Source: Candidatus Iainarchaeum sp.
Lineage (GTDB): Archaea; Iainarchaeota; Iainarchaeia; Iainarchaeales; Iainarchaeaceae
NCBI GenBank assembly: GCA_016202305.1
Contig: JACQPB010000039.1
Span: 6,661 to 70,660 of the forward strand
Length of the DNA stretch: 64,000 nucleotides
Direction: 5' to 3'
The position numbers and the translations under genes were made by a program. Each line of letters opens with the position of its first letter. The first letter of the stretch is position 1. The notes under the pieces are model-generated. The model was given only the letters and a program-made list of their open reading frames with translations. It did not search any database and had not been told where the DNA came from. Below are positions 10,028 through 63,651 of the stretch, piece by piece.

Positions 10028-10200
10028 AATTACTGAATTGATTTCCGTGAACTACCCACCGCTGAAGCAATTAGTGTCCCTTAAGAGGGCAACCGCTGCG
10101 ACGCCATGGCTTCTTGCTTCATCGAATCACCTTGCCAAAATTTGGTATTGGATGGTTCTCTTGCAAGGGCAGGTCCCCTGCCCATGAACTTATTTAATAT
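10024..10200 (-). ncRNA. candidate omega (right-end) RNA of TnpB copy 1, including a guide-like 3' tail
   Basis: DNA blocks are conserved between the two copies even where the protein C-termini diverge: GCCCTTGCAAGAGAACC, GGCAAGGTGATTCGATGAAGCAAGAA (26/26), GGTAGTTCACGGAA. Sequence beyond the right end differs (ATCAATTCAGTAATTATGC here). Confidence 0.4.
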
Positions 10201-11316
10201 ATTTACGGCGGAATTATAATCCCTATCCATTACAACACCACAATCGCCACATTTGTAAGTGCGTTGCCATAAAGGCATTTCCTTCAAGGAGCCGCACCTG
10301 CTACATGTTTTCGTGGTGTTCCTTGGGCTTATTTTTGCGAGTTCGCAACCAGCGCTTCCAGCCTTGTACGCGAGCATTTGCAAAAACCTTGCCCAAGAAG
10401 AATCCATGATATTCCGCGCATTCCGAGCGGAATGCACCATTCCAATGATATTCAAATCCTCAACCACAATCGTCCTGCAACCCTTCACGTATTTTGCGGA
10501 AAGCTTGTGCAAAAAATCATTCCGGCACCGCTCAATCTTTTCATGAACCTTCGCAACCGCCAGCCTAGCTTTTTTCCTGTTGCTGCTGCCTTTCCTCTTC
10601 CTCGCCAAATCCCTCTGCGCGAGCGCAAGGCGCTGCGCATGCTTGCCAATGTTATGCGGATGGGAAATCTTGTTTCCCTCACTGTCCACCAAATAATTAT
10701 TGATGCCAAGGTCGAGGCCAAGAACCTTCTCCCCGCACACCCTCTTCGGATTGGCATCGGTTATGAGTATTGCGAACCATTTCCCCAAGCGATTCTTCAA
10801 AGTAACCTGCTTTATGCGCCCCTCGACAGGCCTGTGCACCTTGATTTTTATGTTGCCGATTTTACTCAAATGCAAAATACCCTTCTTGCTTTTCACCATT
10901 TCGAGTTTGAAGCCAAACTGGTTATAGGAAAATGTCTTGAACCAATCTTTTCCCTTGAATCTCAAAGCGCCAACCTTCCGACCTTTTTTCTTAAGCGCTT
11001 TCAGTGAGCGCAGGTTAGAAAAAAGCCTGTAAGATTCCAACTGCAATGCCTTGGAATGCACCTCATTGAACTCCGACCTCGCTTTCTTCAATTTGACAAG
11101 CTCATGCTGCACCTTGTTCCTACTTGCTTTTCCTGTGCGCAATTTTTCCAGCAAAAAATTATAGGCTTGCCTACAAAGCTCCAGTGAATGCACCAAACCA
11201 AGTGCCTGAACCCTATTAGGGTACAGCCTGAACGCATAACTAATCAAAACCCCACACCAAAAACAAAACCGCGCCAGTCACCTTATAAGCCCAAGGAGAC
11301 GGTTCATTGCCGGTGC
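10043..11316 (-). mobile_element. TnpB-only IS200/IS605-family (IS1341-like) element, copy 1
   Basis: Ends were inferred by comparison with copy 2 (55082..56355). Similarity starts at TTCCGTGAACTACC (right-end side) and stops after TCATTGCCGGTGC (11304-11316, left-end side). No tnpA is present. Both copies come out at 1274 bp using these hand-derived ends. Confidence 0.7.
10081..11247 (-). CDS. tnpB: TnpB (IS605 OrfB-type RNA-guided endonuclease), apparently intact
   Basis: FRLYPN…, LGLDLGINNYLV (RuvC-I), IVVEDLNI (RuvC-II), CSRCGS…CGDCGVVMDRDYNSAVNIL (zinc finger plus RuvC-III). TTG start at 11247. Confidence 0.85.
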   Translation of the reverse strand: MISYAFRLYPNRVQALGLVHSLELCRQAYNFLLEKLRTGKASRNKVQHELVKLKKARSEFNEVHSKALQLESYRLFSNLRSLKALKKKGRKVGALRFKGKDWFKTFSYNQFGFKLEMVKSKKGILHLSKIGNIKIKVHRPVEGRIKQVTLKNRLGKWFAILITDANPKRVCGEKVLGLDLGINNYLVDSEGNKISHPHNIGKHAQRLALAQRDLARKRKGSSNRKKARLAVAKVHEKIERCRNDFLHKLSAKYVKGCRTIVVEDLNIIGMVHSARNARNIMDSSWARFLQMLAYKAGSAGCELAKISPRNTTKTCSRCGSLKEMPLWQRTYKCGDCGVVMDRDYNSAVNILNKFMGRGPALAREPSNTKFWQGDSMKQEAMASQRLPS

Positions 11317-37817: not shown

Positions 37818-39242
37818 TCACGCCGGCAAAACCTTGTTGCTAGGCAACTGCACCTTTGTACCCGACTCGAACTTCAGCAGCCTGCCGAGGCTCTTCAGCA
37901 AATCCGACTTGGCGCCAGTGTTCACGAAAGCGTTCTCAAGCACATCGGAAATGGTGGCGACTGGGATTACCCTTATGGCCTTCGCGGCATCCTCAGTCAG
38001 GACGACATCCTGCATATTCGAAACCGGGATTATGACTTCCTTGAAACCGGCCTTTATCGCCGCGGAAATCTTCGCTGTCACGCCCCCGACAGGAAGCACT
38101 TCGCCGCGCACGCTCAGCGAACCAGTCATCGCGAGGTTTTGCTTCACCGGAATCTTCTCAAGCGCAGAAACGACGGCTGTCGCGACGCTCACCGAGGCGG
38201 AATCGCCCTCGACACCGCTATAAGACTGGAGGAACTGTATGTGCAGGTCCTGCTTCGAGATGTCCTTGCCGGAAATCTTCTTTATGATGGCGGAAACGTT
38301 CTGGACCGCTTCCTTCGCAATCTCACCTAGCTTGCCTGTGGCTATCAGCTTGCCCTCGCTGCTTGACTGGGCCGGCGCAATCTCCGCCTCAATAGGCATT
38401 ATGAGGCCCGCGTCGCCGTCAGCCATCACGGCCAGGCCGTTCACGCGGCCCACGGCCGAACCCTCGCGCAGGTAAACGTCATAATCCTTCTTTTCGTCGA
38501 TTATCTTGGAAACCATCTGCTGCTCGAGCGTCTTCGCGGTCATCTTCGCCTCAAGCACATCCTGGCGCATCACAAGCTTGTGAGACTTCTCCACAGCGAT
38601 GTCACCCGCGGCCCTCACGATGCCGCCCAGGTCGCGCAACTTGAGCGTGAGCCTGCTCTTCCTGCCGGCGCGGCGCCTCGCCTCGAAAATTATTTCCTTC
38701 ACGGCCTCCATGTCAAAATGCGGAATCTTCCCGTCGTTCGTGACCTCCTGCGCCACGAACTGCACAATCCTGTTCCTGTTCTCTTCCGTGTCCTCCATGT
38801 CAAGGTTCATGTAGATTTCATACCCGTACCCGCGAATCCTGCTCCTCAAGGCAGGATGGACTTTTTCCAAATCCTCATAATTTCCCGCGGCCACCAAAAC
38901 AAAGTCGGTGGGAATTGGATCGGTCCGAGTCATCGCACCCGAACTCATCTCGCTCTGGCCCGTGATTGAATACTTCTTCTCCTGCATCGCGGTGAGGAGC
39001 TCCTGCTGGCTCTTCATGGAAAGCGTCGCAATTTCATCAAGGAAAAGCACGCCGCCGGAACTCTTGTGGATTAATCCCGGTTCAATGCGCAGGTGCGGTG
39101 GGGTCCCGAGGCCGCCGGAATTGTGGACAAGGATATCCTCGACGAAAAGATTGCCCGTCTCGGTAGTGACATTGTATACGTGGCCCCTGAAAGGGCGCTT
39201 ATGGACGGAAGTCACCTGCTCGTCTTTTGCCTTGAAATCCAT
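37818..39242 (-). CDS. lonB: LonB protease C-terminal fragment: 41-aa C-intein half plus C-extein (rest of AAA+ module and Ser-Lys protease domain)
   Basis: [41 protein letters not shown]|[30 protein letters not shown]…[10 protein letters not shown]…[23 protein letters not shown]…[14 protein letters not shown]…. Confidence 0.85.
39120..39242 (-). other. C-terminal half of a split intein (blocks F/G, …VHN followed by Ser+1)
   Basis: It begins at the ORF's own ATG (39242) and ends with AAT (Asn) at 39120-39122. The next codon, TCC (Ser), starts the conserved SGGLGTP. Confidence 0.8.
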
Positions 39243-39260
39243 GTTAGACTATTGGTTGCA

Positions 39261-39271
39261 AAATTATTAAA
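39261..39271 (-). promoter_or_regulatory. TATA-like box for the LonB C-fragment (possible leaderless transcript)
   Basis: On the minus strand, TTTAATAATTT lies with ~21 nt between the box and the ATG at 39242. No SD is visible. Confidence 0.4.
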
Positions 39272-39565
39272 TAGGTTGTATTGCGCCCTATGTTGGCGAT
39301 TTGTTGGCGGAAAAGGACAGGTGGAAGTGTAAAAAATGTGGCGTTGAGATAGGGGCCATAACCAGTATTTGCATGACGGAATGTGCGATGACTGCTTCTT
39401 CACGGAATATTTTCCGGAAGATGAAAAGGCACGCAGGAAAAGGCTTGTTATACTTCCGCATAAATAAAAATTGAAGGAATGTTTGCTTGCAAACTTATAA
39501 CAATGGCCGTTTCAATAATGGAACGTGTGTTTCAAGGCGGGAATAAATCAGGATACCGACACAAC

Positions 39566-39638
39566 TGGGAGCGGCAGGACTCGAACCTGCAACCCCTGCC
39601 ACATCGGGGCAGTGCACTAGCCATTGTGCTACGCTCCC
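39566..39638 (-). tRNA. tRNA-like gene with a canonical 73-nt cloverleaf; anticodon by position is GAU (Ile) but the anticodon loop is atypical (CCGAUGU)
   Basis: Hand fold: GGGAGCG-UA-GCAC-AAUGGCUA-GUGC-A-CUGCC-CCGAUGU-GGCAG-GGGUU-GCAGG-UUCGAGU-CCUGC-CGCUCCC-A. All stems are perfect. CCA is not encoded. Confidence 0.7.
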
Positions 39639-39651
39639 ACTCTAAATAAAC

Positions 39652-39984
39652 TTACAACCAGACGTTATTTGATAAGCCCAGCCTCTTCAACCTCGCCCTT
39701 GTTCCCCCGTGCCGCCCCTGCAATATTTTTGTGATTTCCTCTATCGTTTTTCCGGCATTGTACAAATCTGCGAGTTGTTTTTCCTGGGCATCGTCCCAGG
39801 GCTCGTATGCGTTTGGGGTTTCCTGCATGTCCCGCAGGGGCTTTTCATATGCAAGTTGCCGCTTCAATTTCAGGAGCAAATCCATATATTGCCTGAGATT
39901 TGCCCTGTTCTGCCGGCGTTGCCTGACCAGATACATTAGTTTGTTTTTGAGTTCACTCACTTTATCCACATTGCAATCGCCCAT
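39652..39984 (-). CDS. small protein with a C-terminal helix-turn-helix (110 aa)
   Basis: …WDDAQEKQLADLYNAGKTIEEITKILQGRHGGTRARLKRLGL (HTH pattern). It starts 4 nt after the LAGLIDADG ORF stop and ends 13 nt before the tRNA. Confidence 0.45.
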   Translation of the reverse strand: MGDCNVDKVSELKNKLMYLVRQRRQNRANLRQYMDLLLKLKRQLAYEKPLRDMQETPNAYEPWDDAQEKQLADLYNAGKTIEEITKILQGRHGGTRARLKRLGLSNNVWL

Positions 39985-39988
39985 TGGT

Positions 39989-41029
39989 TCAATTCGGCAC
40001 GACTTTTTGGCCAGTAGGGGGCAAGCCCATGTTGTCGTGCGGGTAGGTTGCCTCTTTCACTCTGCTCTCGAGCCTTTCCTTTTTGTCTTTGGCGTACCGC
40101 AAACCGAACTTTTTGTTGAATTTTATTACTTTTTCTCGATGAGTTTGGAAGAATATCCTGTAACAATAACTTGTGTGCCCATCCTTCCTTTGTGTTGGCT
40201 GGCATAATTCTTTTCTGAGGTTTGGCGTTGTGGCCAAGCCAACTTTGGCGCACAGCTGCTTTAGCTCCTGAAGGTATGCCCTATGCTCGTTTTCAAGCAT
40301 ATCAATTTTGCTCAAGCCTAAGGCAAAGTCTGTGAACCTCTTTGCCCAAGACCACCGGGGGTCGCCTCTAAACCGTGGAACGGAAACTTCCGAGGCAAGC
40401 AAGCCGTCAAGGAAAGCAATCTTCTTTGTGTACGCCAAACCAAACACGTACCTTGGCAAGGCATACTTTGTTGAAACTTTGCTTCCTACAGGAGCACCGA
40501 GAGCTGCAAAAAAACGAACAACTGCACGGTCATAACACCGGATATTCCATGAATGACCATATTCCCCGCCTTCTACAATCTGCGTTTTTCCTTCTGCAAA
40601 TGGAAAAATGCTCAGCAAATCGGAGTGCCACAGGTCAACATCCTTTTTGTCGGAAGAAATGAATGCAATCGTGTTGAAACGAATATCAATGCCGCCATCG
40701 CCAAACAAGGTGCCGAGGATATTGAAAATAATTTTGGAATCCTTGTGGATTTGATAGAACGGAAGCAAACCTGCATCTTTCAGTTTTTGGACAACTTTGA
40801 GAGGCAGCGGAATTGCGCGCTTTTCACCTTTGGTGTGCCACCAGCGGGTCATTCCGTTTTTTACTCCGAGAATCTTTGCGGCTTTCTTGTAGCCTATTTC
40901 GGGATTTTCAGCAATGAGCTTCTGGTACTCGAAGTATTTCTTGCAGGAAAATTGTTCCTCTGCAGAATATGTGTTGATTATGTCCTGTTCGGTTATAATG
41001 GGTTGCTTTACAACCATGCCTGCAATCAT
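39989..41029 (-). CDS. free-standing double-motif LAGLIDADG homing-endonuclease-like protein with an N-terminal HTH
   Basis: NILGTLFGDGGIDIR (motif 1) and KIAFLDGLLASEVSVP (motif 2). N-terminal …IGYKKAAKILGVKNGMTRWWH. ATG at 41029 (MIAGMVV…) is preferred over the 41149 extension. Confidence 0.75.
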   Translation of the reverse strand: MIAGMVVKQPIITEQDIINTYSAEEQFSCKKYFEYQKLIAENPEIGYKKAAKILGVKNGMTRWWHTKGEKRAIPLPLKVVQKLKDAGLLPFYQIHKDSKIIFNILGTLFGDGGIDIRFNTIAFISSDKKDVDLWHSDLLSIFPFAEGKTQIVEGGEYGHSWNIRCYDRAVVRFFAALGAPVGSKVSTKYALPRYVFGLAYTKKIAFLDGLLASEVSVPRFRGDPRWSWAKRFTDFALGLSKIDMLENEHRAYLQELKQLCAKVGLATTPNLRKELCQPTQRKDGHTSYCYRIFFQTHREKVIKFNKKFGLRYAKDKKERLESRVKEATYPHDNMGLPPTGQKVVPN

Positions 41030-41124
41030 TTCACAAACCCCCTCTTTAGAAGCAGATTGGTTCGTTTGCCCCTTGCTCGCAAAACAATTGCCAGTGACAG
41101 AAGATATATTGCTTTGCAGACAGG

Positions 41125-41137
41125 TCATTGCCGGTGC
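41125..41137 (-). promoter_or_regulatory. solo copy of the TnpB-IS left-end 13-mer (GCACCGGCAATGA on the minus strand) with a downstream A/T box, upstream of the LAGLIDADG gene
   Basis: The plus strand reads TCATTGCCGGTGC, identical to 11304-11316 and 56343-56355. It is followed (minus strand) by CCTGTCT…AATATAT at the same spacing as CCTCTCT…TTATAAG in the IS copies. Confidence 0.5.
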
Positions 41138-41139
41138 CG

Positions 41140-41286
41140 TCATTCCCAATCACCGCCCTCTGAAAAGTTTTTCAGAATCCAGAGCTCCCTGTCCGTCAGC
41201 TCCTCACCATTCTCGGCCGAGCGCACTGTCTCAATGATTTCCTCCACTGTCGGAAGAACTATTTTCAATTCTTTCAAAAACTCCAT
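41140..41286 (-). CDS. 48-aa acidic micro-protein (MEFLKELKIVLPTVEEIIETVRSAENGEELTDRELWILKNFSEGGDWE)
   Basis: Hand-translated. GGAGGTGG lies 5 nt upstream of the ATG at 41286. TGA stop at 41140-41142. Confidence 0.35.
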   Translation of the reverse strand: MEFLKELKIVLPTVEEIIETVRSAENGEELTDRELWILKNFSEGGDWE

Positions 41287-41290
41287 TCGA

Positions 41291-41437
41291 GCCACCTCCG
41301 GGAAAGGAATTTTTTCCGGAGATTTTTTTTCGCGGGCGGGGGCATTAAATCCTTTGCCCCTCCTCCGCGCATCAAGAGGGGGAAAGGTTTAAGCATCCCG
41401 ACCGCGCAAAATTCGGAAAAAATTCCGAGGAGGTGGC
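41291..41437. repeat. long-range inverted repeat (9 + 13 bp) that can pair the micro-ORF SD with an upstream anti-SD
   Basis: GCCACCTCC (41291-99) pairs with GGAGGTGGC (41429-37). GGAATTTTTTCCG (41306-18) pairs with CGGAAAAAATTCC (41414-26). Confidence 0.7.
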
Positions 41438-41497
41438 GAGAGTTTGAAATAAAGAGTTCTTCTCAAAAGAGGAATTCGAGGGGAAGAATTACTCCGG

Positions 41498-42529
41498 TCA
41501 TTTGGCAATTGCAAGCAATTGTTCCCTTATGAGTTTGATGAGCCTGTCGCCAGCAGAAATTTTTGCAGCCTCTTTTTCAGCATCGGAGACATCCACCTTG
41601 TGCTCGGGAGTGAGGGATATTTTCTTTTGGCCGAGGCTTATGTCCACGAGTTCGCCTTCGTGCGACCTCCTGTTCAAAGAAAGTATCCTCGAAAGCACCG
41701 GCTTGCCGTTTTTGTAGCCTAGAGTGTAAATCTTCTCTTCGGCAGGGAGCATTATCGCTTCGTATCCCTTCTCCACTTTGATTATTTCTTTCGGATATTT
41801 CTGCCTCATTTCGTCCCAAAGCTCTGCAAAGGGCTTTTTCATGAATTCAGGCGCGCTATTGCCTTCTTTTTTATTTTTGAGCTTTATATAAAGCTCATTG
41901 AAGCCATAATGGCACTGAAGCGGGTCATGCCTCACATCACCAAGCAGCGCTCCCGCCCTCGCCCCCGTGGCCTCGAAGAAAGGCGCAACCTTTTTGCCCG
42001 CGTTGTTGACGAGTAGCTTGGGGACCACGATGCCGACCTTCATGCGCATCTGCGACCCTAGCGCGAACCCAATCATGAGGAAGCCGCCGAGAATGAGGGT
42101 GGCCGCGTACACGACATCTGGGACAAGCTTGAGCGCCCATATCACGTAACTGAGGAGGAACCAGCCCATCGGCAGGATTATGCCGATTACGCGCATGTTG
42201 TCGTCCTGCGCCCTGCTCTCCAGCCTCGCCTGCTCCAGTATCCTCTGGCCATCGCCCGCCTTGACGGACTTCACGGCAGGATTGTTCTGGTCCTCGTCGT
42301 TCGGGTACACCAGCACGTCCAGGAGCTTCTGCACCGGCATTATCTCCGACATCGCCTTCGCAATCATCGACTTTCCAGTGCCCGGAAGGCCCACAAGAAG
42401 CACGTTCCTGCGCTGGACCGCCGCCTTCCGGATGAGTTCCGCGGCATTTTCCTGCCCGACAATCTGCTCGAGCAGAAGCTTCGGCACCGGAACATCCTTC
42501 GTGGAGGAAAGCTTGAGGAAATCAGGCAT
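41498..42529 (-). CDS. lonB: LonB protease N-terminal fragment: N-extein (Walker A plus membrane anchor) plus 138-aa N-intein half, ending in a stop
   Basis: …EQIVGQENAAELIRKAAVQRRNVLLVGLPGTGKSMIAKAM…, two TM helices, …FFEATGARAGALLGDVRHDPLQ|CHYGFNELYI…LVDISLGQKKISLTPEHKV…LLAIAK*. Confidence 0.85.
   Translation of the reverse strand: MPDFLKLSSTKDVPVPKLLLEQIVGQENAAELIRKAAVQRRNVLLVGLPGTGKSMIAKAMSEIMPVQKLLDVLVYPNDEDQNNPAVKSVKAGDGQRILEQARLESRAQDDNMRVIGIILPMGWFLLSYVIWALKLVPDVVYAATLILGGFLMIGFALGSQMRMKVGIVVPKLLVNNAGKKVAPFFEATGARAGALLGDVRHDPLQCHYGFNELYIKLKNKKEGNSAPEFMKKPFAELWDEMRQKYPKEIIKVEKGYEAIMLPAEEKIYTLGYKNGKPVLSRILSLNRRSHEGELVDISLGQKKISLTPEHKVDVSDAEKEAAKISAGDRLIKLIREQLLAIAK
41501..41914 (-). 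other. N-terminal half of a split intein (Cys1, block-B-like TPEH)
   Basis: Cys codon TGC at 41912-41914 directly follows the conserved DVRHDPLQ. There are 138 aa to the TGA at 41498-41500. Confidence 0.8.
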
Positions 42530-55240: not shown

Positions 55241-56355
55241 GTTTATGGCCGCATTGTAATCACGGTCAAGCTCAACGCCACAATTGCCGCAACTATAAAT
55301 GCGCTGCGAAAGAGGCATTTCCTTCAAGGAGCCGCACCTGCTGCAGGCTTTCGTGGTGTTTCTTGGGTTTACTTTTGCGAGCTTGCAACCAGCGCTTCCA
55401 GCCTTGTACGCGAGCATTTGCAAAAACCTTGCCAAGAAGCATCCATGATATTCCGCGCATTCCGAGCAGAACGCGCCATTCCAGCAATGTTCAAATCCTC
55501 AACAACAATCTCCCTGCACTTCCTTACATAAATAGCGGAGAGCTTGTGGAGAAAATCGTTTCGGGAGCGCTCAATCTTTTCGTGAACCTTTGCAACCCAC
55601 AGCCTCGCCTTTTTCCTGTTGCCACTCCCTTTCTTCTTCCTCGCCAAATCCCTCTGTGCGAGCGCAAGGCGCTGCGCATATTTATCAACATTGTGAGGAT
55701 GCGCAACCTTGTCCCCGTCACTGTCTACCAAATAATTATTGATGCCAAGGTCGAGGCCGAGAACCTTCTCACCGCACATCCTCTTTGGAGTGGCATTGGT
55801 TATGAGTATTGCGAACCATTTGCCCAAGCGATTCTTCAAAGTAACCTGCCTAATGTTGCCCTCAACCGACCTGTGCACCTTGATTTTTATGCTGCCGATT
55901 TTGCTCAGGTGCAGAATGCCTTTTTTGCTTTTCACCATCTCAAGCCCGAAGCCGGACTGGTTATAGGAAAATGTCTTGAACCAATCCTTCCCCTTGAACC
56001 TCAAGGCACCAACCTTCGTTCCATTCTTCTTCAATCGCCTCAATGAGCGCAGGTTCGAAAAAAGCCTGTCACACTCAGGCTGCAAAGCCTTCGAATAAAC
56101 TTCATTGAATTCAGGCCGCACATTCTTCAATTCCACAATACTATGCTTTACCGCCCCAACATCAATTTTTCCGGATAGCGACTGCTGGTTCAATTTTTCC
56201 AAGAGGAAATTATAGGCCTGCCTGCAAAGCTCAAGCGAGCGCTCCAAGCCAAGCGCCTGAATTCTATTAGGGTACAGCCTGAACACATAACTCAACATAC
56301 AGAAAAAGCCTGCGCCGAAACTTATAAACCCCTTGAGAGAGGTCATTGCCGGTGC
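55082..56355 (-). mobile_element. TnpB-only IS200/IS605-family element, copy 2 (tnpB frameshifted)
   Basis: Same terminal sequences as copy 1 (TTCCGTGAACTACC… / …TCATTGCCGGTGC). It is inserted ~260 bp upstream of cdc6. Confidence 0.7.
55091..56298 (-). pseudogene. tnpB: tnpB with a 1-nt deletion in a C/G run (frames 55369..56298 and 55091..55435)
   Basis: Copy 1 reads CCTTGCCCAAGAAG; copy 2 reads CCTTGCCAAGAAG (~55427-55436). The protein therefore switches from …NIMDASWQGFCKC… to the frame encoding ARFLQMLAYKAGSAGCKLAKV…CSRCGS…CGNCGVELDRDYNAAINIL. The true ATG is at 56298 (MLSYVFRLYPN). Confidence 0.75.
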
Positions 56356-56380
56356 GCAAACCCAACCTTTAAAACAATTT

Positions 56381-56707
56381 ATGGGCAATCTTTCTGTCAT
56401 GAGCCACGACGAACAGGGGCATGATAACGGCCACGGAGAGGGCAAGAAGGGCGACAAGGACAAGAGCTTCATGGTAGACAGGTTCCTCGGAAGAATCGGG
56501 GATTATATCGCCGGCGGAATCGCAAAGCTCGTGGCCTTCATCCTGATAATCATGACTGTCGGCGCGCTCGTAGGATATGTCATCGCCCAAAGGCAGGCCC
56601 CGTTCCTCCTCGTTTTCCTGCCCGCGACTCTTGGAATAATAGCATACTATGAAAGGGACATAGCCGTGCTGCTTTTCGTTGCGTTGCTCCTTTTTGTCGT
56701 TTTCTGA
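56381..56707 (+). CDS. small membrane protein with a His/Gly/Lys-rich N-terminus (108 aa)
   Basis: MGNLSVMSHDEQGHDNGHGEGKKGDKDK… then three hydrophobic helices. It lies upstream of the ArsR-like gene. Confidence 0.4.
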   Translation: MGNLSVMSHDEQGHDNGHGEGKKGDKDKSFMVDRFLGRIGDYIAGGIAKLVAFILIIMTVGALVGYVIAQRQAPFLLVFLPATLGIIAYYERDIAVLLFVALLLFVVF

Positions 56708-58205: not shown

Positions 58206-61200
58206 TTACCTCACATAGCTCGGCTTGAACGCCTGCGCCACGGAGTGCTTGAAGCCGTCGTACGCCTCAGTAGTTTCCTTCGAAATCGACGGAAGGATTT
58301 TCTTGAGCGCGGCCTCGAAGTGCGACATCCTGACCTCAGCGGGCCTGAATCCCGCCTCCTGCATGGAAACCAGCGCGGCCTCACGGATGAGCCCTTCGAG
58401 GTCGGCGCCGCTGTACCCATCGGTTTTTGACGCGAGAGCGAAAATTGTGGGATAAACAAGGAGTTCTTTAAGTTCCTGTTTTTCAGGAATTTCCCCAAGC
58501 GAATCAAAGAATTTTTTCCTGTCTTCAGTGCTTTTCTTGTCCGTCAGCCTGGAAAACAATTCTTTCACTTTCTTGGAAATGCCTGGCGAATACTCTTTTG
58601 CCAGCCAATCCAGCTCATTGTCCGAAAGAGAAAACTCGATTGGAACGTCCTTCGAATGTATCTTCAGGATAAGCTTCCTCGCCTCGAAGTCCGGTGCGGG
58701 GACCTTTATTATCTTGTCAACCCTCCCCGGCCTCAGAAGCGCCGGGTCAATCAAGTCTGGTCGGTTGGTGGCCGCAACGAAGACAACCCCCTTTAGCTCC
58801 TCGATGCCGTCAAGCTCCGTGAGAAGCTGGTTCACCATCCTTTCCCCGACACCGCTGTCTGTGGAGGAGCCACGGCGTGCGGCAATGCTGTCAATCTCGT
58901 CGAAAAAAACGACAACGGGGGAAACCTGCCTCGCGCGCTGGAAAACCTTCCGGATGCCTTTTTCGCTGTTGTGCGCAAATATTCCGCCAAAACCGGCAAC
59001 AAAATTCTGGCAAGGTTCAACGGAAACGTCATAGACAAAGCCAGAATACGTGATTTCTTTTATTTGTTCTACTTTGTCCCAGTAAATATCCGATTCGACA
59101 AGTTTCCACAAAGAGGAGTATTTTTCCCTCTGTAAGTCGATAGTGCATAATGCTTCTCTGAGTTTCTTCACGCCAACAGAATTATTATGCGGATAAGAAC
59201 CGAAAGCCGTTTCAAGAACTTCGGTCAATTTATCACATATTGGGATGACGTTGCTCCGCGCCCAAGACTTTTCCCCGATATATTTTCCGATAAGCATATT
59301 TCTCCTGGAATCAATAAATCCTACGTTGAGGAATTTCCTGAAATTATCAACCCCGAATATCTGCACCCTGTGACTTATGCTCCCGCTCCATTCGCGTTTT
59401 TCCCTGCATGAGGCAACTATCCCGAGTTTCAGGAAAAGATACAATAAATCATTAGCCAGGCTTTTACTAACAGTTGTTGCCTCGATAACATATCTTCTTT
59501 CAGATTTTGTAATGGAGCCATCGCCGCTAAAATAGCCTTTCAGGAAATTATGAACTTGCTCGTTTGAACCCGCGAACAAAAATCCTGGAACACTTTTGTT
59601 GAAAGCACCTGTCTTGAGGCCGAAAACCTTTTCCAAAACATGCTTGAAAATGCAGGAATTTATTACGGCGCCGGTTTCCGTGAAAGTCGCTTTCAGGCCA
59701 AAACTCGACAATATTTTTGACAAATCCGACCTTATTTCCGGGTTTGCATTGGTAATCCGCACAATGTCTCTATTGAAATCGTCTTCAGCAACAAACAAAC
59801 CGAGCAACCTACATAAACCTGAGTTGACATTCAGCAGAACGGGCAGGTGACTTCGCGCACCTTTAACCCCAATAGTCACGCTTGTGAAATCCGGAGTAAA
59901 TCCAAGCCCCGAAATGAGTTTTGCGAACCTTGTCGTCTCCACCGGAAGATTTTTCCCGGTTATATCAGACAAATATTTTTTACTCAGACCGAGACCTTGC
60001 GACACCTTGTCCAGGCCATGCTGTTCTTTTGCCCTCAGGATGTTTTCCCTCAGATTTCCAAGTACGAACCCGCTTTTATCCCTGAAATCATCAAACAAAT
60101 TTATTTGGCGGCGGTCCAAAGAAATGTTTGGAACCCTGGAAGGGACTGCTATAACACTTTTCCCCGCGACAAGATCTTCGGTAGCAATTGATTCTATTTC
60201 CGTGCCAACCAGGCCGAACAATGAATGCTTATCAGTAACTCTTATTGCCCTTCCTGTTTTCGTTTTCACTTCAAGCATTCTGCCGTTCAATGAGTGTTTT
60301 ATGTGGCCATTTATCCTGGAAAAAAGGGCCTTGCCATCAGAATCAAACGTAACTACCTGAACATCCAATTTCTCCTCTACGATTTTTCCTATCTTTTCCC
60401 TGAAAATCTTCTTTCCGTCAAAAACCAGGAGTTCCTCATCGTAAGGCAAACTTTCCCCAACCCACATGCTTATGAGCTGCGGCCCCTTGATGCTGATGAA
60501 ATTGGCTTCAGACTCTGTAGCTATTGCCTTTGCCACGGCTGTTTTTCCACAGCCCGGCGGGCCATAAAGAAGTATGCCGCGCGGAGGCTTTATGCCCATT
60601 TTCTGGAAGCTCTCAGGGTGCTTCAGCGGCCACTCTACAGCCTGCCTGAGCTCGCTCTTAAGCTCCTCAAGGCCGCCGATGTCCTGCCATTTGACATTCG
60701 GAACCTCGATGGAAACCTCGCGGAGCGCCGAAGGCTGGACGTCCTTCAGGGCCTCGAGGAAATCGTCACGCTTCACCTCAAGGCTCTCAAGAACTTCCGG
60801 CGGAATGGTCTCCTCCTCGAGGTTTATTTTAGGGGCCTTGGGGTCGTCAGGATTGAGGTACCTGCGCAGCGCCTTCATCGCGGCCTCCTTCGCGAGCGAC
60901 TCCAGATCAGCGCCGACGAACCCGTGCGTTATTCCCGCGAAATAATCAAGGCCTATGTTCTTGGAGAGCGGCATCCCGCGCGTGTGAATCGTGAGAATTT
61001 CCATGCGCCCCTTCTTGGACGGCACCCCTATTTCAATCTCGCGGTCAAAGCGCCCGGGCCTCCTGAGGGCCTCATCAATGCTGTTCACCCTGTTAGTGGC
61101 GCCAATCACTATCACCTGGCCGCGGGACTCCATGCCGTCCATCGCGGAGAGTATCTGCGCCACGACACGCCTTTCAACCTCGCCCACTACCTCGTCGCGC

Positions 61201-63518
61201 TTCGGGGCTATGGCGTCAATCTCGTCGAAGAAGATGATTGAGGGCGCGTTCTTCTCCGCCTCCTTGAACACCTCGCGGATGCGCTCCTCCGCCTCCCCGA
61301 CGAACTTTGAATTATGCAAAACCATCAGGGAGTGTCCTGCAAGGAAATTATTGAAAGGTTCAACGGTGAGGTCAAATAACTCTTTTTCGCCTTCTTCGCT
61401 AATGTCCGTAACTTTTGCCCATCTAAGCTCGGCGTTGACCAAACACTCCAGAGGCTTGTCGTCTTTTCCGAAAAGGGAGTAAATCTCCTTGAGCTTTCTT
61501 ACAGTCAATGGAGCCCTTCCTGAAATATACCTCTCTGTCGGCCATTCTGGAAGGGTTTTGCCATAAACAAGATTTTTTTTCGATTTTATTTTTTTGAGCA
61601 GAGGGCTTATATCAGGGATTCCCAAATCATCCCCTTTCTTCTTTCTCCCCGTATACCATTTCCTGATGATGGAATATTTTTCCGTGTTGGACTCTACCAC
61701 TTCGGCAAATATCTCTCTCGACCTGTTGCCTACAAATGTCAGTGCCCACATGTCCGAGAGTTTTGTCTTCCAAGGCTTGATTTCAGCTATTAGCCCGAGC
61801 TTTTTACCCAGAACTGAGAGCTGCTCAAGTACAGTCCTTGTAATGGAATAAATCCTTATAGTAGGATAGCCGCCAACGCCCCTGCTCGTGGTACCGTCAC
61901 CTTCCCAAAAACCCCTTATAAAAGAGGCGATTTCTGATTTAGGAAGTGAAAAAAACCATTCTGGAAGCGAGTAATCGCCTTTTCTTCCTATCGGGCTGCC
62001 CAGGACCTCAGAGAAGAAATGCCGCAGAGTCCTTGAATAGCAATGTACGCGATTGTTCTTAATTTTCGGTTCGATAGCGAAGGCTGATTCGCATAGCTGT
62101 GCGAATTCACCGAGCAGAACCGGGTCATTGTTTGAGAAATGCAGGCCATCCTCTGTTATATTCCCTTCAGAATACATGAAACCCAGTATCCTCATCAACT
62201 CTGGAGAGGTTTTCTGCGGAAGCGAAACAAAATTTTCAGCCCTGCTGCGTTTCCTATGGTCAATTTTCACCCCAAGAACTTCCTTATTTTTGGAAGCTAT
62301 ATGGAGTTTTTTTACCCCGTCAGGAGTTTTTACGAATGTTGCATCTGGAAAGCCACTCAAATAATCTCCGAATTCATGACTCTTGCCCTCAGGCAGCGCT
62401 GATGCAATGGCAATTTTATCCCCGGCCTTCAACTCAGAGGCGGTCTTCCATACAATGCAGCCAAAAGAATCCAGCATGGCAAAAGGTTGATTGGAAGAGA
62501 CTACAACCTCATCGCCAAGATGGGTTTTAACCTTATAAGTGTTTGCCCGCAACTTTGTGAGATGGGTTACTTTTCCTTTCTCGATTTTGAGGTCATTATT
62601 TAGCGAGTATACCGAAAGCGGCTCTTTGAGCTCCACAATCTTTAGCTTCCCGTCATTTACCAAAGTGCCACTTTCCAAAGCCTTGCTAAACATTTCCTCT
62701 GCCCTCTCAAAGCCTTTAGGGTTTGTCAGGATCTGTGTGTTGCCCTCAACACACATTATGCTGGGGCTGGAAATCGAAATGAAGTGCGCCTGCGTCTCGT
62801 TCGCCACGGCCTTCGCAAGAAGCGTCTTTCCAGTTCCAGGAGGGCCATAGAGAAGCACGCCCTTGGGAGGATTGATGCCAAGGCGCCTGAAAATCTCAGG
62901 ATGCCTCATGGGCAGCTCTATCATCTCCCGTACTTTCTGGACCTGTTCATCGAGCCCGCCGATGTCCTCGTAGGCTATGCGCGGTATGCCACCGAGGGAA
63001 TCCTTCACAGGCTCCTCCTTGAGTATGAACTGCGTGAAATCCGTGACCTTTACGATGCCCCTCGGATTCGTGTCCACGACCTGGTAAATGAAGCCCGAAC
63101 CGAAGACGCTTATCAGCACCCTGTCGCCCTTGTTCAGGGGCCTGCCGATAAAGTTCTTCTTGAGAATGCGGTCATACCCGGACGCGATTATCCTCACTTC
63201 CTGAGTAGGGGCGAGAACCACGCGCTTGGCCTCCCCGAAGTCAGCCTTCTGAATAACCACTTTCTCCCCGAGGCCCACACCGGCATTCCGCCTGATTAGG
63301 TTGTCCATCCTTATGAGCGCCTTGCCCTCGTCCTCAAGACGTGCCGGCCACACAATGGCGGCCGTCCTCTGCGGCCCTATGACCTCGACAATGTCCCCGG
63401 AAGTTATGCCGAGCTCCTCCTTCGTCTTGCGGTCAAGTGTTATTATGTTGCGGCCGACATGAGAAGGGTCGGGCTCCTCCACACGAAGGCTCAACTGCGG
63501 CTTCTTTCCCAGGCCCAT
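58206..63518 (-). CDS. cdc48: Cdc48/VCP-like double-AAA+ ATPase carrying two in-frame inteins
   Basis: N-domain (…[28 protein letters not shown]…); D1 [20 protein letters not shown]…[12 protein letters not shown]; D2 [20 protein letters not shown]…[12 protein letters not shown]. Likely ATG at 63518 (MGLGKK…). Confidence 0.9.
58968..60452 (-). other. Cdc48 intein 2 (495 aa, D2 module, Ser1, LAGLIDADG-type domain)
   Basis: …[12 protein letters not shown]|[13 protein letters not shown]…[11 protein letters not shown]…[11 protein letters not shown]…[14 protein letters not shown]|[17 protein letters not shown] at 60450-52. AAC at 58968-70. Confidence 0.8.
61311..62753 (-). other. Cdc48 intein 1 (481 aa, D1 module, Cys1, LAGLIDADG endonuclease domain)
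   Basis: …[10 protein letters not shown]|[10 protein letters not shown]…[10 protein letters not shown]…[10 protein letters not shown]…[15 protein letters not shown]|[18 protein letters not shown] at 62751-53. AAT at 61311-13. Confidence 0.85.
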
Positions 63519-63651
63519 GAAAGTAAGGATTAAGGTAACAAATAATAACATAACTCATTGTAAAGCCGCGGCGCAAAAAGCCGATGAATCGGCTATGTTG
63601 AAATGTCGCTTTGAGTAATCATTTTAACCTCCATTGTTATTAAAACTGTTT

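Follow-up and report, generated by a model that had tools for sequence, protein, structure and literature searches.

Genes that harbor more than one intein are common in archaea (PMC10643990), and ATPase motifs are favored sites of intein insertion (PMC4760082). The closest described cases are the genes of MCM (sites a-e, Haloarchaea and Thermococci) and DnaB (sites a-c), in which independent inteins with their own endonucleases occupy conserved ATPase motifs of a hexameric AAA+ or RecA-type motor, sometimes only a few residues apart and with a presence or absence that varies among relatives. Cdc48 is already recognized as an intein host, since one study reports an intein in the CDC48 ATPase of Anaeramoeba (PMC10710043); that host is a eukaryote with a single intein, and the case can be likened to ours by the host protein. 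For archaeal Cdc48 inteins we found only a passing mention in the Anaeramoeba paper. In the 2016 survey Cdc48 does not appear among the top-15 archaeal intein hosts (PMC4760082), and the 2023 table sampled only two DPANN genomes (PMC10643990). Here we focus on a gene of Candidatus Iainarchaeum sp. located in a stretch of 64,000 nucleotides (contig JACQPB010000039.1 of GCA_016202305.1), which as a whole is called the window below. With a probability of roughly 0.92, it is a DPANN (Iainarchaeota) gene for the double-ring AAA+ unfoldase Cdc48/VAT that was independently invaded by two class-1 LAGLIDADG inteins of different families. Compared with MCM and DnaB, the host protein is another one, the host organism belongs to the DPANN archaea, a group barely covered by these surveys, and the insertion points are distributed over two paralogous modules of a single polypeptide and flank pore loop 1 instead of the P-loop (PMC10643990; PMC4760082). 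As both intein families are separate and already widespread, the locus is an ordinary, if tidy, case of a known phenomenon.

The open reading frame (ORF) of the precursor, taken from the ORF list and Pfam, spans 58206..63551 on the minus strand, as do all parts of the gene given below, and comprises 1781 aa plus stop. The flanks of the inteins match CDC48_N, CDC48_2, two AAA domains and AAA_lid_3 in Pfam. The N-extein (aa 1-266, 62754..63551) comprises the N domain together with the part of D1 that ends in SPSIM, including the D1 Walker A motif GPPGTGKT (62823..62846). It is followed by intein 1 (aa 267-747, 481 aa, 61311..62753), which was delimited by Pfam, sequence matches to PDB entries and the alignment of its family. 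The middle extein (aa 748-1033, 60453..61310) contains the D1 pore loop 1 SKFVGE (61293..61310), the D1 Walker B motif (61215..61238), the D1-D2 linker, the D2 Walker A motif GPPGCGKT (60540..60563) and the D2 pore loop 1 SMWVGE (60453..60470). Intein 2 (aa 1034-1528, 495 aa, 58968..60452) was delimited by Pfam, a match to PI-PkoII and family alignments, and the C-extein (aa 1529-1781, 58209..58967), reading from SEKGIR to KPSYVR, carries the D2 Walker B motif (58890..58913) and the D2 lid, into which a helical segment of about 64 aa that is specific to the lineage is inserted (58437..58631). With a slash for each splice junction, intein 1 is bordered by SPSIM/CVEGNT and VLHN/SKFVGE and intein 2 by MWVGE/SLPYDE and FAHN/SEKGIR; the joined D1a site of the window, after removal of intein 1, reads TTCATTTCGATTTCCAGCCCCAGCATAATG/TCAAAGTTCGTCGGGGAGGCGGAGGAGCGC. 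The conceptually spliced extein has 805 aa; its match to VAT of Thermoplasma (5g4f) has an E of 1.8e-231, the one to p97/Cdc48 an E of about 1e-197. Its alignment to VAT is gapless at both junctions, where VAT reads lsingpeimskyygqseq and vlskwvgesekair, respectively. The N domain, both AAA modules, the Walker A and B motifs and the pore loops of a type II AAA+ protein of the Cdc48/VAT/p97 group are all present and are shared with Thermoplasma VAT/p97/Cdc48 (5g4f), which lacks the inteins and the helical insertion in the D2 lid. The nearest relatives of inteins and extein alike are found in Candidatus Iainarchaeum/Diapherotrites metagenome-assembled genomes (MAGs), a DPANN (Nanobdellati) lineage.

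An earlier note, made from the sequence of the window alone, had described under the range 58968-62753, whose limits are the last nucleotide of intein 2 and the first of intein 1, one Cdc48 gene with two large LAGLIDADG inteins at neighboring but non-identical positions of D1 and D2. The hidden Markov model (HMM) matches, the exact extein junctions and the existence of intein-free alleles in relatives agree with this description, and the gapless alignment to VAT also bears out the junctions given there; the sizes (481, 495 and 1781 aa) hold as well. Intein sequence accounts for 54.8% of the ORF, hence more than half, as had been noted, and the inteins are A+T-richer than the exteins, as had been noted as well: G+C is 0.445 in intein 1 and 0.427 in intein 2 versus 0.562 in the exteins, and at third codon positions (GC3) 0.47 and 0.45 versus 0.71. 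The true start of the precursor is probably not the first ATG but Met12 (ATG at 63518, MGLGKKPQ), leading to a product of 1770 aa, as the Cdc48 proteins of relatives begin 8-10 residues ahead of LSLRVEEPD, close to this Met. The first ATG (63551) lies in an AT-rich, promoter-like stretch (63495..63551, minus strand), just past a terminator-like hairpin.

Both inserts have the features of class-1 inteins. Their removal restores the host protein, they start with a nucleophile (Cys1 and Ser1, respectively) and end in a block G of the form HN/S, and intein 2 also shows the block B T-x-x-H. In Pfam, Intein_splicing is matched at E 1.2e-18 by intein 1 and at E 7.8e-19 by intein 2, up to the last residue of each, so that the splicing blocks, which the earlier note had proposed to look for by HMM, are indeed found in both; LAGLIDADG_3 is matched at E 3.8e-16 and E 5.4e-24, respectively. 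Both inteins have two LAGLIDADG helices, each of which ends in a catalytic Asp or Glu. Intein 1 combines Cys1, the block-F Asp, a terminal HN and a +1 Ser with the block B S-S-N-Q (62487..62498) and the LAGLIDADG motifs LGFMYSEGN (62160..62186) and IRGFWEGDG (61893..61919). Intein 2 has Ser1, a terminal HN, a +1 Ser, the block B T-D-K-H (T73, H76; 60225..60236), a first LAGLIDADG motif that ends in AEDD and contains the change G224D (59778..59807), and the second motif LKGYFSGDG (59517..59543). The sequences with solved structures that intein 1 matches are VMA (E 1.8e-12), PI-PfuI and PI-PkoII inteins, and intein 2 matches PI-PkoII (2cw7) at E 6e-28. Compared by sequence only, PI-PkoII and the Pyrococcus V-ATPase inteins (7qsu/7qss) are the closest solved structures, with a HINT domain and an inserted two-motif LAGLIDADG endonuclease in common, but their hosts are DNA polymerase and V-ATPase A and the similarity is low.

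Class-1 inteins splice by an acyl shift, transesterification, cyclization of Asn and a final O-N shift. Along this pathway, the precursor of 1781 aa (or 1770 aa) would be translated as a whole and two HINT domains would fold. The first step would be an N-S acyl shift in intein 1, giving a Cys1 thioester with the -1 residue, and an N-O acyl shift in intein 2, giving the corresponding Ser1 oxyester. The +1 Ser would then attack in a transesterification, the Asn of the terminal HN would cyclize, and the O-N shift would leave a peptide bond. Thereby both pore-1 loops would be rebuilt in an unfoldase of 805 aa, and until both excisions have taken place, the native pore loop would be missing from one ring of the subunit. 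On the DNA level, each intein would spread, or would once have spread, by its own endonuclease, which cuts intein-free alleles, followed by gene conversion. Each family has colonized the homologous D1 and D2 sites in different lineages.

The position of the two inteins relative to the pore loops is well defined. In VAT, the residues that grip the substrate are Tyr264/Tyr265 in NBD1 and Trp541/Val542 in NBD2, all in pore loop 1 (Ripstein et al.), and their aligned counterparts in the window extein are F269-V270 and W549-V550. Intein 1 is inserted between Met266 and Ser267 of the extein, directly ahead of the D1 pore loop 1 (IM/SKFVGE), and intein 2 between Glu552 and Ser553, directly behind the D2 pore loop 1 (SMWVGE/SEK). 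In an alignment of D1 and D2 (48% identity, 251 columns) M266 stands opposite I546 and E272 opposite E552. The two sites are thus six residues apart, not five as the earlier note had counted, and judged from this alignment the six residues between the a-site and the b-site are pore loop 1 itself. Since each intein adjoins a pore loop, unfoldase activity can be assumed to need both splicing events.

The family of intein 2 occupies the b-site, GE/SE in D1 or D2. One genome per species was scanned with an alignment of intein 2 and its homologs, which yielded 150 relatives; the best 80 of these matches correspond to 78 loci, and with the addition of L001, which shares its contig with L003, the analysis covered 79 loci, in which the intein sites were placed by aligning each ORF to the window extein. 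At least 29 of them, on 28 distinct contigs, have an intein at the D2 b-site (D2b, after extein residue 552) and at least 28 at the D1 b-site (D1b, after residue 272). In all, the family is present in at least 57 species genomes. The hosts are mostly DPANN and comprise Iain-, Micr-, Woese-, Aenigmat-, Nano- and Pacearchaeota as well as Methanosarcinales and Hadarchaeales. Over the last 200 residues, inteins from D1b and D2b share 40-50% identity, and their branches are interleaved in a neighbor-joining tree, from which it is concluded that the b-site family moved between the paralogous sites. Its hallmarks are the start Ser1-Leu-Pro, T-D-x-H, an AGFGG..HN end and the insertion behind the G-[EQ] of pore loop 1, all of which intein 2 shares; its identity to the inteins of L001, L004 and L010 is about 72-74.5%. 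Inteins related to intein 2 by 28-30% identity also occur in four MAGs of Myxococcales or delta-proteobacteria (L073, L075, L078, L079), inserted at the same site behind the pore loop (SKWVGE/SLPW...LVHN/SEENLRR) of single-AAA, FtsH-like proteins with a HEAGH metalloprotease motif.

The residues by which intein 2 is predicted to splice (Ser1, T73, H76, D475, H494-N495 and the +1 Ser) fall on columns that are at least 98% conserved. Among 58 members of the b-family, Thr73, His76, Asp475 and His494 are invariant and Ser1 and Asn495 are each found in 57. The earlier note was therefore correct that intein 2 begins with Ser, but this is the rule of the family and no oddity of the window copy. In the endonuclease columns of the same 58 members, Glu223 is kept in 55, Asp311 in 57 and Gly224 in 57, and the sole exception at Gly224 is intein 2 of the window with its Asp. 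The note had likewise read the EDD at the end of the first LAGLIDADG motif correctly, but the form to be expected is not GDG: the family consensus is AEG[DS], and AEDD is the one substitution G224D away from it, with the catalytic Glu223 kept. As to the degenerating endonuclease suggested in the note, the domain has its full length and both catalytic acidic residues (E223, D311) are present, which speaks against degeneration, and a Gly that is retained in 57 of 58 members and lies directly beside E223 is changed to Asp, which speaks for it; the suggestion can thus be kept only faintly.

The occurrence of the two inteins varies from one close relative to another. The pair of an intein at the D1 a-site (D1a) and one at D2b is also found in three Iainarchaeum MAGs (L009, L015, L016) and in P0027 (1707 aa). 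Relative to the window, P0027 is 84.3% identical in the extein, 85.7% in intein 1 and 66.3% in intein 2, and L009, L015 and L016 are about 74-75%, 54-59% and 52-55% identical, respectively. Intein 1 is absent from L010 (extein 87.8%, intein 2 74.5%) and L002 (extein 81.0%, intein 2 81.2%). Judged from these identities, the histories of inteins 1 and 2 are discordant with each other and with that of the host, as expected of independently homing elements. Intein-free D1a alleles with identical protein flanks are present in L001, L002, L004 and L010, those of L005 and L017 read FIPISSPSIM on the N-side of the junction, and D2b is intein-free in P0024, P0028 and P0029. The codon of the +1 Ser at D1a (61308..61310 in the window) is TCA in all four occupied alleles (window, L009, L015, L016) and AGC or AGT in eight of nine empty ones (L001-L017); this split may reflect co-conversion of the flank or a preference for the target, in a sample that is small and not phylogenetically independent. 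The D1 b-site of the window reads GE/AEE, and Ser stands at this position in every gene with an occupied D1b. Since a +1 nucleophile is missing there, this site would be unable to host a b-site intein.

Regarding composition, the G+C of the intein is below that of the extein in 56 of 57 related loci, with a mean difference of 0.059. GC3 of the inteins falls short of that of the extein where the host is GC-rich and surpasses it where the host is very AT-rich, as in L001-L004. The inteins thus keep an intermediate composition whatever the host is, and the gap in the window is among the largest of the 57 loci (L001-L077). Low G+C was also considered as proof of a recent foreign origin, which holds in part only, as GC3 exceeds that of the extein in low-GC hosts.

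One could imagine that both inteins have been domesticated and are kept because conditional splicing, in response to redox state, temperature or stress, regulates the unfoldase by interrupting both pore loops. Each intein indeed adjoins pore loop 1 of its own ring, the endonuclease of intein 2 is perhaps impaired while its splicing residues are intact, and two papers bring forward proposals that ATPase inteins have a regulatory role (PMC10643990; PMC4760082). However, the presence of each intein varies between close genomes, the composition is foreign-like and the endonuclease domains are kept, all of which fits selfish mobile elements, and insertion at conserved functional motifs is a general rule for inteins that needs no regulation. 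We therefore regard such a switch as improbable.

Intein 1 belongs to the a-site family, which occupies [ML]/SK in D1 or D2 and is rarer than the b-site family. A word-indexed search with intein 1 revealed only two allelic relatives, and in an exhaustive search of 1.84 billion representatives 12 proteins reached E <= 1e-30. Among the members located at D1a are L009, L015, L016, L049, P0027-P0031 and P0033-P0036, and among those at the D2 a-site (D2a, LL/C...HN/SKWVGE) are L033, P0045, P0077 and P0121. Hallmarks of the family are a Cys-Val start, the block B S-x-N-Q-P-F, an NF[LM][AG]G....HN end and the insertion ahead of the S-K of pore loop 1, and intein 1 fits them. In place of T-x-x-H, the a-site inteins have S-x-N-[Q/H]-P-[F/L] throughout, with Gln at the block-B position in 17 of 19 (the window included) and His in the other two (L015, P0028). 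When the profiles of the a- and b-families are aligned (hhalign, probability 100%, E 2.5e-45), this Gln falls on the His76 column of the b-family. Furthermore, the -1 residue of a-site inteins is always bulky, namely Met, Leu or Ile. The Gln at the position of the block-B His is the least ordinary feature of the locus, and it had escaped the earlier note.

Several points weigh against a functional gene with two active, independently acquired inteins. The canonical block-B His, which is normally essential for the first splicing step, is replaced by Gln in intein 1. The endonuclease of intein 2 may be dead through G224D, a change next to the catalytic Glu that occurs in none of 57 relatives. Moreover, all comparative data come from MAGs, and in the public collection no record of the exact Cdc48 precursor protein was found. 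The first two of these points would also suit a precursor that is unable to splice, due to the missing His or other lesions, and hence a decaying Cdc48 pseudogene, all the more as the block-B His is called essential in many inteins (PMC6333167). Yet the reading frame of 5.3 kb is unbroken, the exteins are 81-88% identical to those of relatives, and the Walker A, Walker B and pore-loop motifs are intact. S-x-N-Q-P-F is kept at D1a and D2a alike and across hosts whose inteins are only 27-31% identical and whose ORFs are intact and well conserved, which indicates a selected trait of the family and not a lesion; G224D, in turn, concerns the endonuclease, which is dispensable for splicing. A dead gene is accordingly very unlikely. 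The missing His lowers the canonical status of intein 1, not its membership among the inteins, since natural exceptions are known. The small natural group of Tko CDC21-1 intein orthologs lacks the block-B His like intein 1 and the 17 of 19 a-site inteins, and also has a bulky -1 residue, Leu(-1) in Tko, for which steric bulk was proposed to compensate for the missing His (PMC6333167, citing Tori et al., 2012). The a-site inteins differ from this precedent in that their host is Cdc48 and not MCM, that they form another family and that the residue in place of the His is the Gln of the conserved S-x-N-Q-P-F. By their conservation, we infer that the a-site inteins splice.

Both sites belong to the same conserved segment behind Walker A of paralogous modules, so that one intein could have jumped from D1 to D2 or in the reverse direction within the gene, with a subsequent divergence of the copies. 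The two inteins show a detectable similarity (E 5e-17), and transfer between paralogous sites did occur elsewhere inside each family, as seen for D1b and D2b and for the a-site family, where the best non-allelic match of intein 1 is the D2a intein of L033 (27% identity over the full length, 129-137 bits). But intein 1 and intein 2 share just 23% identity over 304 aa with about 70 bits, restricted to the endonuclease and the C-terminal part, and either one scores at this level, too, when compared with inteins of other Cdc48 sites (320, 239) or of MCM; against inteins at all other sites intein 1 reaches 70-86 bits. Moreover, the sites are non-homologous positions in the D1/D2 alignment, the hallmarks differ (Cys1 with S-x-N-Q versus Ser1 with T-D-K-H), and close relatives have one intein without the other. 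Since the similarity is merely at background level, it is concluded that the gene was invaded independently from two families, which also settles the alternative of intragenic spread or independent invasion left for comparison in the earlier note. An intragenic duplication was ruled out by the identity matrices and an all-against-all BLAST, and spread within the gene is hardly credible. A chimeric assembly, in which low-GC inserts of another organism were mis-joined, would account for the sharp G+C steps at the intein borders, but it can practically be dismissed, as both inserts keep the reading frame and have junctions exact to the codon, whose joining gives back a perfect Cdc48 sequence, the same architecture recurs in four independent assemblies and the gap in G+C between intein and extein is general across the 57 loci.

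Besides the independent double invasion as such, a further-reaching proposal is possible, to which we give about even odds. The a-site inteins may constitute a second, larger natural class-1 lineage that splices without the block-B His, the first acyl shift being driven by the Asn-Gln of S-x-N-Q-P-F together with the bulky -1 Met or Leu. Together with the b-site intein, the unfoldase would then depend on two independent splicing events, by which pore loop 1 is restored in each ring, and Cdc48 would be an unrecognized intein hot-spot of DPANN, with about nine sites, up to three inteins per gene and two families hopping between D1 and D2.

In the 79 loci, inserts that measure 140 aa or more and show intein junctions follow the extein residues 239, 266, 272, 289, 320, 337, 546, 552 and 618. 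Site 239 is inside Walker A (GPPG/C...HN/TGKT), and site 618 is paralogous to 337. Three of the genes (L024, L025 and L069) carry three inteins each. DPANN loci with Cdc48 inteins at further sites are these three as well as L028, L032, L059, L062, L074 and L077. L025 contains a mini-intein of only 147 aa at D1b. In L049, the a-site (266) and the b-site (272) of D1 are both filled by full-size inteins with only SKFYGQ between them, and both sites are probably filled in L066, too. Some short relatives (P0002, P0004-P0006, P0008) start 2-7 residues ahead of the intein, and it was considered whether their Cdc48 gene is split there. In P0004, P0005, P0006, P0008 and L001 (4210..8085 of JANLGZ010000070, GCA_024653905.1), the annotated start is an internal Met (MWVGE/SLP...) giving a product of about 690 aa. 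Since the contig of L001 holds one continuous ORF of 1291 aa, the short relatives have mis-annotated starts and are not split genes. The D2-lid insertion of the window gene (about 64 aa) is Lys/Glu-rich, predicted to be helical and not intein-like; it coincides with a local dip in G+C and is missing in VAT. Similar variable insertions exist in the D1 and/or D2 lids of relatives (L001, P0024).

Elsewhere in the window, two ORFs encode TnpB of the IS200/IS605 type (OrfB_IS605; 55369..56472 and 10084..11277, both on the minus strand) with similar N-terminal regions, one of them 1.7 kb downstream of the Cdc48 gene. A phmmer search with inteins 1 and 2 as queries revealed no further inteins in the window; by eye, however, a putative split intein was recognized in the LonB protease gene, which is present in two pieces (37818..42529, minus strand). 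The first piece (41498..42529, minus strand) is the N-part of LonB, followed by an intein N-fragment of about 140 aa (GDVRHDPLQ/CHYGFNEL...TPEH...stop) that begins with Cys and contains T-P-E-H. The second (37818..39242, minus strand) is a 41-aa intein C-fragment followed by the C-part of LonB from SGGLGTPPH. Between the halves lie an ORF of 386 aa with LAGLIDADG-like motifs and no Pfam match (39989..41149) and a tRNA-Ile(GAT) (39565..39639). Contiguous LonB homologs read DPLQ/SGGLGTP, L080 has the same layout with halves 3.7 kb apart, and among the 120 database homologs that match the LonB C-half best, at least 60 open with the same C-fragment. The LonB gene hence looks like a 'fractured gene' whose halves are separated by a natural split intein of wide occurrence, for which no describing paper was found in our literature search.

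Altogether, the Cdc48 gene of the window is a clean and fully annotatable multi-intein gene that changes no concept. Automatic annotation mishandles such genes, as the NCBI gene calls of relatives start at an internal Met just ahead of the intein, so that correct junctions matter for proteome predictions in DPANN. The cysteine-free splice junctions of intein 2, with Ser1 and Ser+1, are of interest to protein engineers. The most useful leads are the His-free block B in the a-site family and the way in which both families have hopped from one paralogous site to the other. The former, with Gln replacing His next to a bulky -1 residue at the junction, offers a natural test of the idea of compensation put forward by Friedel et al. 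(2018), and the latter, with two families at homologous sites of paralogous modules, is a natural data set on the retargeting of endonucleases to paralogous sequences.

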